In this document: piece after piece, positions 26,161 through 32,000 of the stretch | Layout of the letters: each line of letters begins with the position of its first letter | Numbering within the stretch: the stretch's first letter is position 1 | Assembly (NCBI RefSeq): GCF_003324675.1 | Contig: NZ_CP030918.1 | Coordinates: forward strand, 210,001-242,000 | Length of the DNA: 32,000 nt | Origin: Paracoccus suum | Lineage (GTDB): Bacteria > Pseudomonadota > Alphaproteobacteria > Rhodobacterales > Rhodobacteraceae | Direction: 5' to 3' | Position numbers and translations under genes: made by a program | The notes under the pieces: model-generated | What the model saw: the letters and a program-made list of their open reading frames with translations, nothing else | Database searches by the model: none | What the model was told of the DNA's origin: nothing

Positions 26161-27009
26161 CTAGGCTGGCAAAACGGCGCTTATCACCCGGTCCCGACCG
26201 TCCAGATCCTTGAGCGTGGCGATCTGAACCAGACCCGCTTCCGCGAACAGCTTTCCGACCGCATTTGTCTGCGTTGGGCCAATCTCGACCAGCAAGCGGC
26301 CACCTCCGGTCAGATGCGCCGCCGCCCCCCCGGCAATCGCGCGGTAGGCGCCGAGGCCGTCGCCTCCATCGGTCAGGGCCATCGCCGGCTCCCATAGGCG
26401 AACCTCGGGCGAGAGCCCGGGCATTTCATCGGCGGCGATGTAAGGCGGGTTCGAGATGATCAGATCGAAGTGACCGTTTATTGCGTCGAACCAATCCGCC
26501 TCGATCAGTCGAGCGCGGTCGGTCAGTCCCAGCGCCTGCGCATTGCTGCGCGCCACCGCCAGCGCGGCAGCCGAGCGGTCGGTGCCAAGCCCTGTTGCGT
26601 CGGTTTGTTCGGCCAGCAGCGTCAGCAGGATCACCCCGGTCCCGGTGCCGAGGTCCAGAAGGCGCGAAAACGGCGCCTCCAGCGCGGCGGCGATCAGGGT
26701 TTCCGTCTCCGGACGGGGGTCGAGTGTGTCTTGCGTCACGCGAAACGACCGGCCCCAGAACAGCCGCTGGCCGATGATCTGGGCCACCGGGCGACGCGCC
26801 AGCCGCGCGCTGAGCGCGGCATCGAGGCGGGCCGCCGCCTCCAGCGGCAAAGGGTCGCGCGCCAGCAGCGTCAGCCGCCCGGAATCGCAGCCTAGCGCGT
26901 GGGCCATCAGCCGCCGGGCATCGCCGGGCGCGTCCGGGATCGCAGCCTCGGTCAGGTCTGCGGTAATACGCCGCAGGGCATCGGCGACGGTGTAGGGCGG
27001 CAGGGTCAT
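26161..27009 (-). CDS. prmC: Peptide chain release factor N5-glutamine methyltransferase
   Basis: LDLGTGTGVI SAM motif, catalytic NPPY (IISNPPYI), and F.V....L.PRPETE. ATG at 27009 is preferred over the TTG at 27117. Confidence 0.9.
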   Translation of the reverse strand: MTLPPYTVADALRRITADLTEAAIPDAPGDARRLMAHALGCDSGRLTLLARDPLPLEAAARLDAALSARLARRPVAQIIGQRLFWGRSFRVTQDTLDPRPETETLIAAALEAPFSRLLDLGTGTGVILLTLLAEQTDATGLGTDRSAAALAVARSNAQALGLTDRARLIEADWFDAINGHFDLIISNPPYIAADEMPGLSPEVRLWEPAMALTDGGDGLGAYRAIAGGAAAHLTGGGRLLVEIGPTQTNAVGKLFAEAGLVQIATLKDLDGRDRVISAVLPA

Positions 27010-27120
27010 GGTGCGAGAGACATCCCCAGGAGCGGGCCAGGGCCGTTGCGGATTAAGAGGAAGCGCGAGCAGAACAGCGTGAGGATAGGCCAGGCGAACG
27101 TGCCCCGCCGCATGCAAGGC

Positions 27121-27642
27121 TTAGCCGCGCGCCATTTCGCGCTTCAGCTTTTCCATCTTGCGGGTAATCATCTGCCGCTTCATCGGGCCGATGTGGTCGA
27201 TGAACAACTTGCCGTTCAGGTGGTCGATCTCGTGCTGCACGCAGGTCGCCCACAGCCCGTCGAACTCGCGCTCATGCGTGGCACCATCGAGGCCGGTCCA
27301 GCGCACGCGGACCTCCGCCGGGCGGGTCACCTCGGCGTAGTGGTCCGGGATCGACAGGCAGCCCTCCTCATAGACGTTCTGGGCCTCGGACGACCATTCG
27401 ACCTGCGGATCGATCAGGACCATGGGCTGGCGCTCGGCCGTGGGGTCCTTGGTGCAGTCCATGACCAGCAGGCGCGACAGCACGCCGACCTGCGGCGCTG
27501 CAAGACCAATGCCGGGGGCGTCATACATGGTGGCCAGCATGTCGGCGGCCAGCGCATCGATATCGGGGGTCACGCGGCCGACCTCGGCGCAGGTCTTGCG
27601 CAGGCGCAGGTCGGGATGCAGCAGGATAGAGCGCAGATTCAT
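27121..27642 (-). CDS. def: Peptide deformylase (canonical)
   Basis: All three motifs are intact: GIGLAAPQ, EGCLS and QHEIDH. It also has a basic C-terminal helix, PMKRQMITRKMEKLKREMARG. Confidence 0.95.
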   Translation of the reverse strand: MNLRSILLHPDLRLRKTCAEVGRVTPDIDALAADMLATMYDAPGIGLAAPQVGVLSRLLVMDCTKDPTAERQPMVLIDPQVEWSSEAQNVYEEGCLSIPDHYAEVTRPAEVRVRWTGLDGATHEREFDGLWATCVQHEIDHLNGKLFIDHIGPMKRQMITRKMEKLKREMARG

Positions 27643-27747: not shown

Positions 27748-28932
27748 ATGGCGCAACCGGATTTCGACGAGATCATCGAGCGGCGTGGCTCGCTCTGCTC
27801 CAAATGGGACGACATGAAGTCCTATTATCCGGTCCCCGACCAGAACGCGCTGGCGATGTGGGTCGCCGACATGGACTTTCGCCCGCCGGCCGCCGTGACG
27901 GCGGCGCTTCGGGACACCATCGACCACGGCATCTTTGGCTATCCGGGCGCGAATACGCCCTATCTCGACTCGATCCGCTGGTGGATGGCCAACCGCCACG
28001 GCTGGGACATCCCGCGCGAGGCGATTCTGTCGGCGCACGGGCTGGTGAACGGTACCGCCCTTGCCGTCCAAGCCTTTACCGAGCCGGATGACGCGGTGAT
28101 CCTGACCACCCCGGTCTATCACGCCTTCGCCCGCATCATCAAAGCCTCGGGCCGCACGGTCACCGAACTGCCGCTGGCCAACGACGATGGCCGCTACAAT
28201 TTCGACTGGCCGGCGTGGGAGAGCGTGCTAACGGGACGCGAGCGCATGTTCATCCTGTGCTCACCGCACAACCCGGGCGGTCGGGTCTGGTCCAAGGCCG
28301 AACTGCGCGAGGTCGCCGATTTCTGCCGCGCCCATGACCTGATCCTTGTCAGCGACGAAATTCACCATGACCTGGTGCTGCCCGGCAGCCCGGCGCATCA
28401 CGTCACCGCGACGGTCGCGCCGGACATCGCCGACCGGCTGGTCACGCTGACCGCGGCGACCAAGACGTTTAACATCGCCGGCGCGCACATCGGCAACGCG
28501 ATCATCACCGATCCCGACCTGCGGGCCCGCTATGCGGCACAGATGATGGCACTGGGCATCTCGCCGGGCCTGTTCGGCCTGCCGATGGTGACCGCCGCCT
28601 ACTCGCCCGAAGGCGCGGCATGGGTCGATGCCCTCAACGCCTATCTCGACGGTAACCGACAGCTGTTCGACGCCGGGGTCGATGCGATCCCCGGCGTTTC
28701 CTCGATGCCGCTGCAGGCGACCTACCTCGCCTGGGTCGACCTGTCGGGCACCGGCATGTCGCCCGAGGAATTCAACGCCCGGATCGAGCGTCAGGCCGGC
28801 ATCGCCGCCAACCACGGCAGCAGCTTCGGCGCGGGCGGCGAGAGCTTCGTGCGCTTCAACCTCGCGACGCCCCGCGCCCGCGTGGCCGAGGCGGTCGAGC
28901 GGCTGCAGGCAGCCTTTGCCGATCTGCAGTGA
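27748..28932 (+). CDS. PLP-dependent C-S lyase / aminotransferase of the MalY/PatB family (cystathionine beta-lyase-like)
   Basis: FDEIIERRGS.CSKWD, VADMDF..P, LCSPHNPGGRVW and SDEIH.DL; the likely PLP lysine lies in ATKTFNIAG. GGAGGACAGG precedes the ATG at 27748. The 677 aa track ORF is 5'-extended. Confidence 0.88.
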   Translation: MAQPDFDEIIERRGSLCSKWDDMKSYYPVPDQNALAMWVADMDFRPPAAVTAALRDTIDHGIFGYPGANTPYLDSIRWWMANRHGWDIPREAILSAHGLVNGTALAVQAFTEPDDAVILTTPVYHAFARIIKASGRTVTELPLANDDGRYNFDWPAWESVLTGRERMFILCSPHNPGGRVWSKAELREVADFCRAHDLILVSDEIHHDLVLPGSPAHHVTATVAPDIADRLVTLTAATKTFNIAGAHIGNAIITDPDLRARYAAQMMALGISPGLFGLPMVTAAYSPEGAAWVDALNAYLDGNRQLFDAGVDAIPGVSSMPLQATYLAWVDLSGTGMSPEEFNARIERQAGIAANHGSSFGAGGESFVRFNLATPRARVAEAVERLQAAFADLQ

Positions 28933-29489
28933 TCGTCCTGGCGGTCATCGCCATGTGGCTGCTGCTGGCGTTCTGGCAGGGCCTTGTCGATCTGCCCGGC
29001 GATCTCAAGGACTGGTTGCCGGATCTGCGTCCGCCGGAAATCAGCGTGCCCTCGGGCCCGCTGAAGGGCACGGTCGACCGAATCGTGATCGACAAGTCCG
29101 ACCGGATGCTGATCGCGGTACAGGACGGCAAGCCGGCCCGCGTCTATACCGTGGCGCTGGGCAAGTCGCCTGAGGGCGACAAGCAGCGCCAGGGCGATGG
29201 CCGCACGCCCGAAGGCATCTACCACGTCGATCGCCGCAACGACCGCAGCCAGTTCCACCTGTCCCTTGGCATCGACTATCCCAAGCCCGACGAGCGGGCG
29301 CGCGCCAAGGCCGCGGGCATCGATCCGGGCGGCGATATCTTCATCCACGGCCAGCCCAATGGCCGCGTCGCCCCGGGGTATCGAATCACGACCGACTGGA
29401 CCGACGGCTGCGTGGCCCTGTCCGACGGCGAGATCGAAGAGCTGTTCGCCGCCACCCCTGTCGGCACGGAAGTCGAGATCCGGCCATGA
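28929..29489 (+). CDS. L,D-transpeptidase-fold protein (YafK-like), membrane-anchored
   Basis: N-terminal TM helix. DKSDRMLIAV..G....Y.VALG..P.G.K...GDGRTPEGIY and IFIHG...TDGCVAL (His/Cys catalytic pair). GTGA overlap with the upstream stop. Confidence 0.8.
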   Translation: MIVLAVIAMWLLLAFWQGLVDLPGDLKDWLPDLRPPEISVPSGPLKGTVDRIVIDKSDRMLIAVQDGKPARVYTVALGKSPEGDKQRQGDGRTPEGIYHVDRRNDRSQFHLSLGIDYPKPDERARAKAAGIDPGGDIFIHGQPNGRVAPGYRITTDWTDGCVALSDGEIEELFAATPVGTEVEIRP

Positions 29490-30235
29490 CCACGCCCTCA
29501 GACGCCGCACGCCAGCATTTCAGCACCGGGGGCGCCGATTACGCCACCTTTCGCCCGCGCTGGCCGCGCGCCATGGCCGAAGCTTTGGCGGCGGCGGCGC
29601 CCAAACGCAGCCTTGCCGTCGATGTCGGCTGCGGCAGCGGCCAGTTGACGACGCAACTCGGGCCGCTGTTCGATTGCGTCCTCGGCTTTGATGTCTCACC
29701 CGACCAGCTGGCGGCAGCCGAACCAGCGGCCGGCGTAATCTACGCGGCAGCGGCGGCCGAGGCGCTGCCGGTGTGCGACGGCACGGCGGCGCTGATCACC
29801 GTCGCGCAGGCGGCCCACTGGCTCGACCTGCCGCGCTTTTACGCCGAGGCCGTGCGCATCGCCCGCCCCGGCGCGCTGCTGGCCCTGGCAAGCTATGGCC
29901 CGGCCGAGGTGGATGGCCCCCTCGCCCCGGCCTTTGCCCGCCTGCGCGACGTCGTCGCCGGCCATTGGCCGGCTGAGCGTATCCATGTCGAGACAGGCTA
30001 TCGCGACCTGCCCTTCCCCTTCCCGCCCGTCGATCTGCCACGGCTGGCGATCGAGGTCTGCTGGCCCGCCGAGCAGTTGTCCGGCTATGTCGAGACCTGG
30101 TCCGGCACTCGCCGGGCCCGCGCCGCCGGTGACGGCGCCGGCATCGACGCCTTTGCCGCCGCAGTCCGCGCGGCCGCGGGCAGCGAGGTGCACCTGCGAT
30201 TTCCGATTGCGGTCAGGGCCGGCCGGATCGGCTGA
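29486..30235 (+). CDS. Class I SAM-dependent methyltransferase, substrate unknown
   Basis: VDVGCGSGQLT (motif I), then ...GFDVS..Q and ...D....ALITVAQAAHW. ATGA overlap with the upstream stop. Confidence 0.8.
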   Translation: MTTPSDAARQHFSTGGADYATFRPRWPRAMAEALAAAAPKRSLAVDVGCGSGQLTTQLGPLFDCVLGFDVSPDQLAAAEPAAGVIYAAAAAEALPVCDGTAALITVAQAAHWLDLPRFYAEAVRIARPGALLALASYGPAEVDGPLAPAFARLRDVVAGHWPAERIHVETGYRDLPFPFPPVDLPRLAIEVCWPAEQLSGYVETWSGTRRARAAGDGAGIDAFAAAVRAAAGSEVHLRFPIAVRAGRIG

Positions 30236-30315
30236 GGCCTCGGTCCCCCATTTTAATCCCGGTTGCGACAGCGGCGGTCATTCCCTCAACGCGGCTTCCA
30301 TGGCAAAACCGCGTC

Positions 30316-30822
30316 ATGAGCGACGCGCTGCCAGACTGCCCCCCGCCCCCGACATCCGGCGCCGTTCGGCCCGTCGTGCAATATCCCGACCCCGCGTTGC
30401 GCCAAGTCTGTGTCGGCCTGCCGGATGATCCGGAAGCGCTCGCGCTGGACATGCTCGCCACCATGTATGCTGCGCCGGGCCGTGGCCTCGCCGCGCCGCA
30501 ACTCGGTTTGCCGTGGCGGATGTTCGTCATGGATGTCGACTGGAAGTCCGGTAGCCCGGCACCGTTGATCGCCCTCGACCCCGCGCTCAGCGATCCCTCG
30601 GCCGAGACCGTGACCCGGTCCGAGGGCTGCCTGTCAATCGCCGACCACCCGGTCCTCGTGACCCGCCCGGCCGAGGTGACGCTGCACTGGACCGACCTCG
30701 CCGGCAACCGCCGCAGTCAGCGCCTCACCGGCGTTGCCGCCACCTGCGCTCAGCACGAATACGACCATCTGGACGGAATCCTGATCCTCGATCACGAGCG
30801 CCCCGAGGATGCCGAAGCATGA
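30316..30822 (+). CDS. Peptide deformylase paralog 2: catalytic motifs present, C-terminal helix absent
   Basis: GRGLAAPQ (Arg at the usually hydrophobic motif-1 position), EGCLS and QHEYDH are present. The protein ends about 17 aa after the HExxH with the acidic tail ERPEDAEA. A 16 aa Pro-rich N-terminal extension is present. No obvious SD. Confidence 0.85.
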   Translation: MSDALPDCPPPPTSGAVRPVVQYPDPALRQVCVGLPDDPEALALDMLATMYAAPGRGLAAPQLGLPWRMFVMDVDWKSGSPAPLIALDPALSDPSAETVTRSEGCLSIADHPVLVTRPAEVTLHWTDLAGNRRSQRLTGVAATCAQHEYDHLDGILILDHERPEDAEA

Positions 30823-31316
30823 TCCGCCCCGTGCTGCCCTATGACGATCCGCGCCTGCGCCGCCCGGCCGAGCCGGTGGCCGAGGTCACCGAAACCGTGC
30901 GCATGATCTGGGATGACATGATCGACACGATGGAGGCGATGCCCGGAGTGGGCCTCGCCGCGCCGCAGATCGGGATCATGCTGCGCCTTGCGGTGGTAGA
31001 TGCCAGCGAAAAGCGCGGGCAAGCGGTACGCATGGCCAACCCCGAGGTGCTGCACGCCAGCATCCACAGCCGCGCTCATGACGAGGCGAGCCCGCATTTG
31101 CCCGGCGTCTCGGCCCGGATCGAGCGGCCGCGCGCAGTCACCGTGCGGTTCCTCAACGATCAGGGCGAGGTCGAGGAGCGCGATTTCGTCAGTCTCTGGG
31201 CGACCAGCGTCCAGCACCAGATCGACCATCTGAATGGCAAGTTGTATGTCGATCACCTGTCCCCCCTGCGGCGCAAGATGCTGGTGGCCCGCTCGGCCAA
31301 ACTGGGCCGCAAGTGA
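30819..31316 (+). CDS. Peptide deformylase-like paralog 3, predicted catalytically inactive
   Basis: Motif 1 GVGLAAPQ is intact. Motif 2 EGCLS is replaced by EASPH (Ser codon AGC at 31089-31091 where the Cys ligand should be). Motif 3 reads QHQIDH (CAG at 31218-31220 replaces the catalytic Glu). The basic C-terminal helix [19 protein letters not shown] is retained. ATGA overlap with paralog 2. Confidence 0.85.
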
Positions 31317-31353
31317 AGGGGCGCCGCCGCGAGGATCGCTTGGGGGACACCGT

Positions 31354-32000
31354 ATGCGAGTGATCGTCATGGGAACGCCCGATTTCACCGTCCCTGCCCT
31401 GCGCGCCCTCGCCGCCCGGCATGACGTCGTCTGCGTCTATTCCCAGCCGGCGCGCCCGGCGGGCCGAGGACAGGTGCCACGACCCTCGCCCGTCGCACGC
31501 GCGGCGGAGGCGCTTGGGATCGAGGTGCGCACCCCGGCCAAGCTGCGCGACGCCCCGGCGCAGGCTGAATTCGCCGCACTGGGCGCAGATGTCGCGGTGG
31601 TCGCGGCCTATGGCCTGATCCTGCCGCAAGCGATCCTCGACGCCCCGCGTCTCGGGTGCCTGAACATCCACGCCTCGCTGCTGCCGCGTTGGCGCGGCGC
31701 CGCACCGATCCACCGCGCGATCCTTGCCGGCGATGCCGAGACCGGGGTCGCCATCATGCAGATGGAGGCCGGCCTCGATACCGGCCCGGTGCTGGCCGAG
31801 GCGCGCACCACAATCTGTCCGCAGGACACCACCGCCGATCTGCATGATCGGCTTTCGGCCATGGGGGCGGAATTGATCGTCGATGTACTGGATCGCCTGC
31901 CCCTGCCGGCAGTGCCGCAACCTGCCGAGGGCGTCACCTATGCAGCCAAGATCGACAAGGCCGAGGCGCGGATCGACTGGTCCCGTCCGGCGGCCGAGGT
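31354..32000 (+). CDS. fmt: Methionyl-tRNA formyltransferase, N-terminal about 215 aa; continues off the right edge
   Basis: Edge ORF, absent from the track. My translation from the ATG at 31354 gives [19 protein letters not shown]...[12 protein letters not shown]...[30 protein letters not shown]...LDTGP, the canonical Fmt motifs. Confidence 0.93.

Follow-up and report, generated by a model that had tools for sequence, protein, structure and literature searches.

In this work, we analysed a stretch of 32,000 nucleotides (nt) from Paracoccus suum (contig NZ_CP030918.1, positions 210,001 to 242,000; hereafter the window) in which three open reading frames (ORFs), def1, def2 and def3, match the peptide deformylase (PDF) family PF01327, and we focus on the third, whose product looks like a PDF that has lost its catalytic apparatus and which appears to be kept across the Rhodobacterales. 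The first gene, def1 (27121–27642, minus strand), encodes a canonical type-1B PDF of 173 residues (PF01327 E = 5.8e-49) that scores above the cut-offs of both NF001159 and TIGR00079 in profile searches. The second, def2 (30316–30822, plus strand), encodes a protein of 168 residues (E = 9.1e-42) that we read as an accessory deformylase with intact catalytic residues, and def3 itself (30819–31316, plus strand) encodes a putative pseudo-deformylase of 165 residues without cysteine (E = 1.4e-39). Each of the three matches spans nearly the full profile. The start of def3 overlaps the stop of def2 in the four letters ATGA (30819–30822, plus strand, as read from the sequence), and 37 nt after the def3 stop begins fmt, the gene for methionyl-tRNA formyltransferase, which continues past the end of the window (31354–32000, plus strand; PF00551 E = 4e-46). 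An initial annotation of this DNA had described the two overlapping def-family ORFs with fmt downstream, and our analysis places all of them where it did. NCBI entries match Def1 (AXC48482.1) and Def2 (AXC48485.1), and an NCBI protein from P. suum has 100% identity to Def3; NCBI uses the name 'peptide deformylase' for all three genes, and UniRef automatically calls Def3 'Peptide deformylase-like'.

The residue equivalences among the three proteins, which the initial annotation had drawn from an ungapped comparison, are the same in a MAFFT alignment with Escherichia coli PDF, in phmmer alignments against Protein Data Bank (PDB) chains and in structure superpositions, and both the MAFFT and the phmmer alignments are ungapped through motifs II and III. 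Aligned with E. coli PDF, Def1 reads GIGLAAPQ / EGCLS / HEIDH and ends in a basic C-terminal helix. Def3 reads GVGLAAPQ / EASPH / HQIDH: its degenerate motif II (31083–31097, plus strand; residues 89–93) corresponds to E88-G89-C90-L91-S92 of the E. coli enzyme, and its degenerate motif III (31215–31229, plus strand; residues 133–137) keeps both histidines and has glutamine for glutamate. Among the features of a competent PDF (EC 3.5.1.88), motifs II and III are thus present in Def1 (EGCLS, HEIDH) and Def2 (EGCLS, HEYDH), whereas Def3 has motif I and lacks both motif II (EGCLS) and motif III (HExxH).

In the PDF mechanism, the Cys90 thiolate is a metal ligand, the backbone NH of Leu91 binds the formyl oxygen and Glu133 acts as the general acid/base. 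Proline has no backbone NH, so that of Leu91 is lost in Def3, and the changes Cys90 to Ser, Leu91 to Pro and Glu133 to Gln therefore take away three separate parts of this mechanism. A cysteine supplied from elsewhere in the chain, the rescue that the initial annotation had named as fatal to its reading of Def3, was looked for and rejected: P. suum Def3 contains zero cysteines, so the metal site cannot be filled by another cysteine of the chain, and the family has no conserved cysteine column. The sole acidic column particular to Def3 is position 39 (E/D, 85%).

To place these changes in evolutionary context, we used two surveys. The genome survey covered one genome per GTDB species, metagenome-assembled genomes (MAGs) included, and retrieved at least 120 loci with a DNA pattern for QHQIDHL[N/D]G; because it selects on Def3 motif III, the fraction of Rhodobacterales without Def3 is not measurable from it. 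The metagenome survey retrieved 120 loci with a Def2-specific pattern (GRGLAAPQxGxxxRxFVxD) and makes no selection on Def3 motifs. Genes at each locus were identified by searching ORFs with a Def hidden Markov model and the Fmt of the window, and the Def proteins were classed by their motifs and tails. All counts from the genome survey below refer to the matches and loci listed.

Cys90Ser and Leu91Pro occur together in 112 of 112 full-length genomic Def3 orthologs. Among the Def3 genes picked through the Def2 motif in metagenomes (n = 96), motif II reads E[AG]SP[NC][LI] in every one, and all 89 copies that cover motif III read HQ[IV]DH; the representatives of 50%-identity clusters related to Def3 read H[QR]xDH in motif III, never HE. 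The family consensus for motif II is E-[AG]-S-P-[NCH], and neither its Ser nor its Pro varies in any of the 112 and the 96 orthologs. The fixed changes comprise A89 (92%), S90 (100%), P91 (100%), N92 (93%), G95 (99%), S129 (100%) and Q133, position 92 being His in P. suum and Cys in some orthologs. Further near-invariant residues are particular to Def3, namely W31 (99%), M41 (98%), A73 (99%) and A58, together with a His in the column just before E87 (89% of orthologs).

This pattern bears directly on whether Def3 could still deformylate peptides by means of an unusual metal site. The protein scores 126 bits against the TIGR00079 equivalog cut-off of 104, it keeps both His ligands and Gln50, and motif-variant PDFs are sometimes active, as noted in the PDF survey by Lamberioux et al. 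(2025, Mol Biol Evol, PMC12690207), which covers 5,042 reference genomes. Yet the three catalytic elements are missing together in every ortholog, the P. suum protein has no cysteine to offer, Pro91 deprives the formyl oxygen of the NH that holds it in established PDF enzymology, and the UniProt automatic rule already demotes the protein to a deformylase-like one. We therefore regard deformylase activity of Def3 as highly improbable.

What Def3 retains is as consistent as what it has lost. All or nearly all orthologs have G43, G45, Q50, D61, P75, E88, R102, D135, H132 and H136. The AlphaFold2 (AF2) model of Def3, predicted from a mixed alignment, has a predicted local distance difference test (pLDDT) score of 96.1 and superposes on full-length E. 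coli PDF with a template modelling (TM) score of 0.94–0.95 and a root-mean-square deviation of 1.1–1.3 Å over 164 columns. The closest solved relatives are proteobacterial type 1 PDFs (37–40% identity to type-1B). The C-terminal end of Def3 ([19 protein letters not shown]) includes a basic helix (31263–31310, plus strand; residues 149–164, [16 protein letters not shown]) that DSSP assigns in the model.

In E. coli, this helix contacts uL22 through L149, K150, R153 and K157 and the 23S rRNA through K160 and R163, according to PMC12690207. Def3 orthologs have K/R in about 99% of cases at E. coli positions 150, 151, 157 and 160, and Met at 153, as does Def1; the net charge of the tail is +7 across the family, equal to that of Def1, and the Def3 helix is about five residues shorter than the Def1 helix. 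The ribosome-docking helix of type 1B is thus present in Def3 and Def1 at the level of sequence and model. Def3 resembles E. coli PDF in fold, motif I, basic C-terminal helix (K/R at 150, 157 and 160) and genomic partner, fmt, and differs from it in Cys90Ser, Leu91Pro, Ser92Asn or His, Cys129Ser and Glu133Gln. The initial annotation had noted the same combination of altered motifs II and III with a preserved motif I, both histidines and the basic helix, and both alignments and model bear it out. Def3 is, as far as sequence and model can tell, a PDF-fold protein without the canonical catalytic apparatus in which the peptide-binding strand of motif I is kept.

The predicted loss of catalysis has not been followed by decay. 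For proteins from the same genomes, mean pairwise amino-acid identity is 0.68 for Def1, 0.65 for Def3 and 0.50 for Def2, and the median ratios of non-synonymous to synonymous substitution rates (dN/dS) are 0.23, 0.26 and 0.46, respectively. The ratios were calculated by the Nei–Gojobori method from pairs with 0.1 < dS < 1.5; in genes this rich in GC, dS comes close to saturation, which inflates absolute dN/dS, and only the relative values are to be trusted, the ranking being robust. Among 117 Def3 copies, 112 are full-length, four are cut by the end of the locus and one is frameshifted. The Def1-like identity and dN/dS together with the full-length copies indicate that selection maintains Def3 nearly as firmly as it does the canonical enzyme, and rule out the reading of def3 as a decaying pseudogene; the initial annotation had argued for a maintained protein from an intact ORF with conserved flanking blocks. 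The frameshifted copy (L114:7132–7675) has a single frameshift at motif I, which may be a sequencing error; so may the split of a canonical def1 into two ORFs in Pseudophaeobacter leonis (L080:3851–4360), whose genome also has def2. Def2 is under much weaker constraint, evolving about twice as fast as Def3.

Constraint of this kind could mean that the altered site has taken on a job of its own. Ser90, Pro91, Asn92, Ser129, His132, Gln133 and His136 might form a neofunctionalised site for a metal-independent reaction, for example through a Ser–His dyad, or for a different N-terminal group or small-molecule ligand. Ser90, Pro91 and Ser129 are at 100% and Asn92 at 93% in a family with a mean identity of 65%, where a simple loss of function should tolerate Ala, Gly or Thr at position 90, and W31, M41, A73, G95 and the His before E87 add residues found particularly in Def3. 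The invariance could, however, be purely structural, with the loop held in place after loss of the metal, and position 92 does vary, with Cys in some orthologs and His in P. suum. Searches of Pfam, NCBIfam and the PDB with Def3 returned canonical PDFs only, and no family of other chemistry was matched. On balance a new chemistry or ligand seems to us fairly unlikely.

The genomic setting of def3 is equally constrained. Where a locus of the genome survey extends 1.3 kb or more 5' of def3, the gene order is def1-def3(-fmt) in 61 cases and def1-def2-def3(-fmt) in about 32, with all genes on one strand. In at least 108 loci fmt directly follows def3, and in 50 of those the two overlap by 1–10 nt. 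Divergent Def3-like proteins, one with 59% identity and HRIDH and one with 49% identity, likewise lie in def1-def3-fmt. From the locus counts and these divergent operons, the core operon is def1-def3-fmt, with def2 as an optional insert, and def3 holds a constant place in the middle of an operon, def1-(def2)-def3-fmt, that extends across the Rhodobacterales and in which def3 reads as co-transcribed and translationally coupled with def1 and fmt. Of 80 record titles listed for the survey, 79 are Rhodobacterales or unclassified alphaproteobacterial MAGs. The remaining record, L073 (JAHVJD010000009.1), bears the name of the actinobacterium Nocardioides marinus DP1N28-1, yet it has a roseobacter-like def1-def3-fmt with a Def3 that is 69% identical to that of P. 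suum, and the assembly is probably mislabelled or contaminated.

That Rhodobacterales PDF genes cluster is already published. The Rhodobacterales passage of PMC12690207 reports clustered same-strand PDF genes in 98.1% of the reference species of the order and three grouped genes in 62.5%, and states that the rationale of this clustering 'remains elusive'. These are the same type of locus as ours, although three-gene loci make up only about one-third of the present GTDB-species sample with its MAGs, against 62.5% there. The passage counts and maps the genes and makes no mention of a dead copy or a non-basic tail, so the dead state of Def3 is not discussed in it, and the text examined does not describe a def1-def3-fmt core with an optional def2.

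P. suum Def2, the product of the optional gene, reads GRGLAAPQ (30478–30501, plus strand; residues 55–62), with Arg at a hydrophobic position, EGCLS (30622–30636, plus strand; residues 103–107), with the Cys metal ligand, and HEYDH (30754–30768, plus strand; residues 147–151), with both His ligands and the catalytic Glu. Its last residues, [10 protein letters not shown], bring the chain to roughly residue 153 of the E. coli enzyme. Its AF2 model (pLDDT 90.7) has a complete core, about 15 disordered N-terminal residues and no long C-terminal helix. The tail has a net charge of −2, against +7 for Def1 and Def3, and no contact position is basic; with this charge, these contacts and this model, the ribosome-docking helix is absent from Def2. 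Alignment and model thus agree with the initial annotation on a protein that keeps its catalytic motifs, has Arg in motif I and stops in a short acidic tail without the basic helix.

Across 34 Def2 orthologs, which were classified without using the Arg of motif I, the catalytic residues are intact in all 34, and Arg44, Phe58 and Trp64 (each 34 of 34), the last as part of Trp64-Lys65, form an invariant signature. The tails measure 13–31 residues and fall into two classes, of about 13–18 and about 23–31 residues, both acidic or neutral; not every ortholog lacks the helix, and the trait conserved across them is the loss of positive tail charge. Position 44 of E. coli PDF lines the S1' pocket, and Arg44 suggests that Def2 has an altered S1' region or substrate preference. 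In P. zeaxanthinifaciens, Def2 (L012:1422–1836) is degenerate, with ETCLSRP, HLADH and a tail of nine residues, which may reflect a sequencing error. Def2 is probably a separate accessory deformylase that is catalytically competent, untethered to the ribosome and often lost, and would act off the ribosome.

An active PDF without a helix next to a dead one with a helix invites the idea, put forward in the initial annotation, that the two form an obligate split or heteromeric deformylase in which Def3 tethers Def2 to the ribosome. Their traits are indeed complementary and conserved, as are the ATGA overlaps at 31 of 37 def2/def3 junctions, and in the metagenome survey 98 loci reach 600 nt or more past the Def2 domain, of which 96 have def3 immediately 3' of def2. 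This last association says little, because Def3 is near-universal in Rhodobacterales. On the two exceptional contigs, L121 and L150, def1-def2 is present, but neither def3 nor fmt lies within 7–10 kb. On a further contig, L232, with 586 nt downstream, the def2 frame runs without a stop into molybdopterin oxidoreductase-like sequence.

In 60 of 96 informative Def3 genomes the operon has no def2 (the rest of each genome was not searched for it), leaving 36 with def2, and the presence of def2 on a neighbour-joining tree of Def3 requires at least 19 gain or loss events. The strict co-occurrence of a prozyme-type pair is thus not found, and the co-conservation that the initial annotation expected of the two genes stands in the direction from Def2 to Def3 and falls in the other. 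Nor does Def3 carry a Def2-linked signature: its identity is 0.651 within the def2-containing genomes (n = 36), 0.652 within those whose operon lacks def2 (n = 60) and 0.647 between the groups, and no Def3 column shifts in residue frequency by more than 0.37 between them.

The overlap of def2 and def3 was also considered as a sign of a specific pair and rejected, since every one of the four junction types shows overlaps of 4 or 1 nt: besides the def2/def3 junctions, they are found at 38 of 71 def1/def3, 21 of 32 def1/def2 and 48 of 108 def3/fmt junctions. Without a Def2-linked signature, the maintenance of Def3 is not explained by service to Def2, and its conservation appears independent of def2. 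Together with the faster evolution of Def2 and its degenerate copy in P. zeaxanthinifaciens, these results make the split deformylase very unlikely and leave that part of the initial annotation behind, although Def2 might make use of Def3 where both exist.

If Def3 has a partner, Def1 is the other candidate. In a prozyme-like arrangement, Def3 would pair physically with Def1 as a pseudo-dimer and activate, stabilise or position it. The adjacency of def1 and def3 is the ancestral core of the operon, with short overlaps at more than half of the junctions as given above, and there are precedents in trypanosomatids, where S-adenosylmethionine decarboxylase (AdoMetDC; PMC6221367) and deoxyhypusine synthase (PMC3663545) are proven obligate heteromers with a prozyme. 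Def3 resembles these prozymes as a dead paralog under selection next to an active one; it differs from them in being known here from sequence and models, and in that the partner first proposed, Def2, is dispensable in most genomes.

A hint of the Rosetta-stone type comes from fusions of dead and active PDF domains in unrelated lineages. Among the Def3-related 50%-identity cluster representatives, we observed tandem PDF proteins that join a dead domain to a canonical one, some of about 330 residues (P0143, P0146, P0150, P0175 and P0183) and others of 370–704 residues (P0172, P0176, P0187, P0231, P0236, P0244 and P0265). A low-GC type, exemplified by P0150 from a Rickettsiales MAG, has a dead N-terminal domain with Q50M, a Cys-to-Ser change, or HExxY or HGVDL in place of HExxH, followed by a canonical C-terminal domain with a basic helix; P0183 has the reverse domain order and a dead domain with HQMEH. 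A high-GC type, exemplified by P0236 from a Thermoleophilaceae MAG, has a dead N-terminal domain (GxGLAAPM / EGNLC / HEIEI) and then a canonical C-terminal domain. We know of no description of such pseudo-PDF/PDF fusions.

The fusions differ from Def2 and Def3 in being covalent, and the Rickettsiales type bears the basic helix on the active domain, which is the reverse pattern. Because the fused dead domains carry different substitutions (Q50M, HExxY, EGNLC), their origin is independent of Def3 and they are not its orthologs. The fusions show that keeping a dead PDF module with an active one is recurrent, which lends some weight to Def3 cooperating physically with an active Def, most plausibly Def1. 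Two further points speak against a pseudo-dimer with Def1. In P. suum, def1 has moved 2.7 kb away to the other strand while def3 is unchanged, and binding to Def1 alone would not demand that the Def3 helix be conserved as strictly as that of Def1. We consider this pairing unlikely.

Other dead PDFs are known. According to PMC12690207, which cites Margolis 2000 and 2001, Staphylococcus aureus and Streptococcus pneumoniae have accessory PDFs of type 3 that are inactive, and these are likewise second PDF homologs with substituted catalytic motifs that sit beside an active PDF. These type 3 proteins are Gram-positive and changed in motifs I and II, however, whereas Def3 has its changes in motifs II and III and an unaltered motif I; unlike them, Def3 is closest to proteobacterial type-1B PDFs (37–40% identity; TM score 0.94 to E. 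coli PDF), keeps the ribosome helix and is encoded between def and fmt. Our literature search for a function of a dead PDF in Rhodobacterales or of 'deformylase-like' proteins returned nothing relevant, and it found no published assay of any Rhodobacterales Def paralog. As far as that search reached, the Def3 pseudo-deformylase is undescribed at the residue level.

We favour, at about even confidence, the reading of Def3 as a maintained pseudo-deformylase, derived from a type-1B PDF, that would bind the ribosome exit site or nascent N-termini alongside Def1. The initial annotation had offered a non-catalytic ribosome- or nascent-chain-binding factor as its fallback, an idea that agrees with the conservation of both the basic helix and motif I. 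Def3 would dock at the ribosomal exit site through the helix and bind nascent N-termini while leaving the formyl group on; beside or against Def1, it might serve as a competitor, a placeholder or a reader that tunes co-translational deformylation, and translational coupling would keep its amount in a set ratio to those of Def1 and Fmt. More tentatively, Def3 may be an order-wide ribosome-associated pseudo-enzyme that holds the PDF dock or N-formylmethionine N-termini and so sets which proteins are deformylated and when. It could, for example, delay or block the deformylation of some proteins, maybe in partnership with Def1.

Several points weigh against this favoured reading. The invariance of Ser90, Pro91, Asn92 and Ser129 exceeds what simple loss of function would ask for and could reflect a site for new catalysis or a new ligand. 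It is hard to see what selective advantage a protein that does no more than compete with an essential enzyme would bring. For positions 131–139, part of the conservation in the genome sample follows from the pattern used to select it. Activity also occurs in some PDFs with variant motifs, such as the type 3 PDFs of Trypanosoma brucei mentioned in PMC12690207. Finally, the transposon-sequencing (Tn-seq) data for Rhodobacter sphaeroides list fmt (RSP_0875) as essential, and the examined portion of the essential-gene table with DEG homologs contains no 'deformylase'. If this absence holds, it would be a weak indication that def3 is non-essential in rich medium, and it would hint, just as weakly, that this species can do without any one of its def paralogs.

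The P. suum locus departs from its relatives in the placement of def1, which in most of them lies directly 5' of def2 or def3 and here is inverted, 2.7 kb from def2; among the loci listed that include def1, this is the only inverted copy, and elsewhere def1 and def3 share a strand. Between def1 and def2 lie genes for an aminotransferase, a YkuD L,D-transpeptidase and an S-adenosylmethionine (SAM)-dependent methyltransferase (27748–30235, plus strand). The def1 gene itself is 3 nt upstream of a gene for a prmC-like release-factor methyltransferase (PF17827 and PF05175), the two together spanning 26161–27642 on the minus strand. A promoter and terminator scan of 29400–32000 returned no match, such a scan being uninformative in a high-GC alphaproteobacterium.

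One side observation concerns the housekeeping enzyme. At the position of E. coli Arg97, Def1 has Tyr in 73% and Phe in 26% of the Rhodobacterales orthologs listed, and the Def1 of the window has Tyr, in IPDHYAEV. In Vibrio cholerae, R97Y lowers susceptibility to actinonin (Lamberioux et al., PMC12690207), and given this effect of the substitution the Rhodobacterales housekeeping PDF may be naturally less sensitive to actinonin.

Taken together, the residue-level picture is one of a canonical copy, an optional, active and presumably untethered copy, and a universal, dead and presumably tethered copy, which sharpens the published puzzle of why these genes cluster. The shared NCBI name 'peptide deformylase' for the three genes inflates any count of active accessory PDFs in Rhodobacterales, an order that includes the abundant marine roseobacters, Rhodobacter and Paracoccus. 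PDF is a long-studied essential enzyme and antibiotic target, and how it competes with other factors for the ribosomal exit site is under active study. A dead PDF that keeps its docking helix throughout an order, under selection much like that on the enzyme, points to an unrecognised non-catalytic role in the processing of nascent N-termini. If this is true, control of deformylation by Def3 would constitute a regulatory layer on co-translational N-terminal processing that is undescribed in bacteria.

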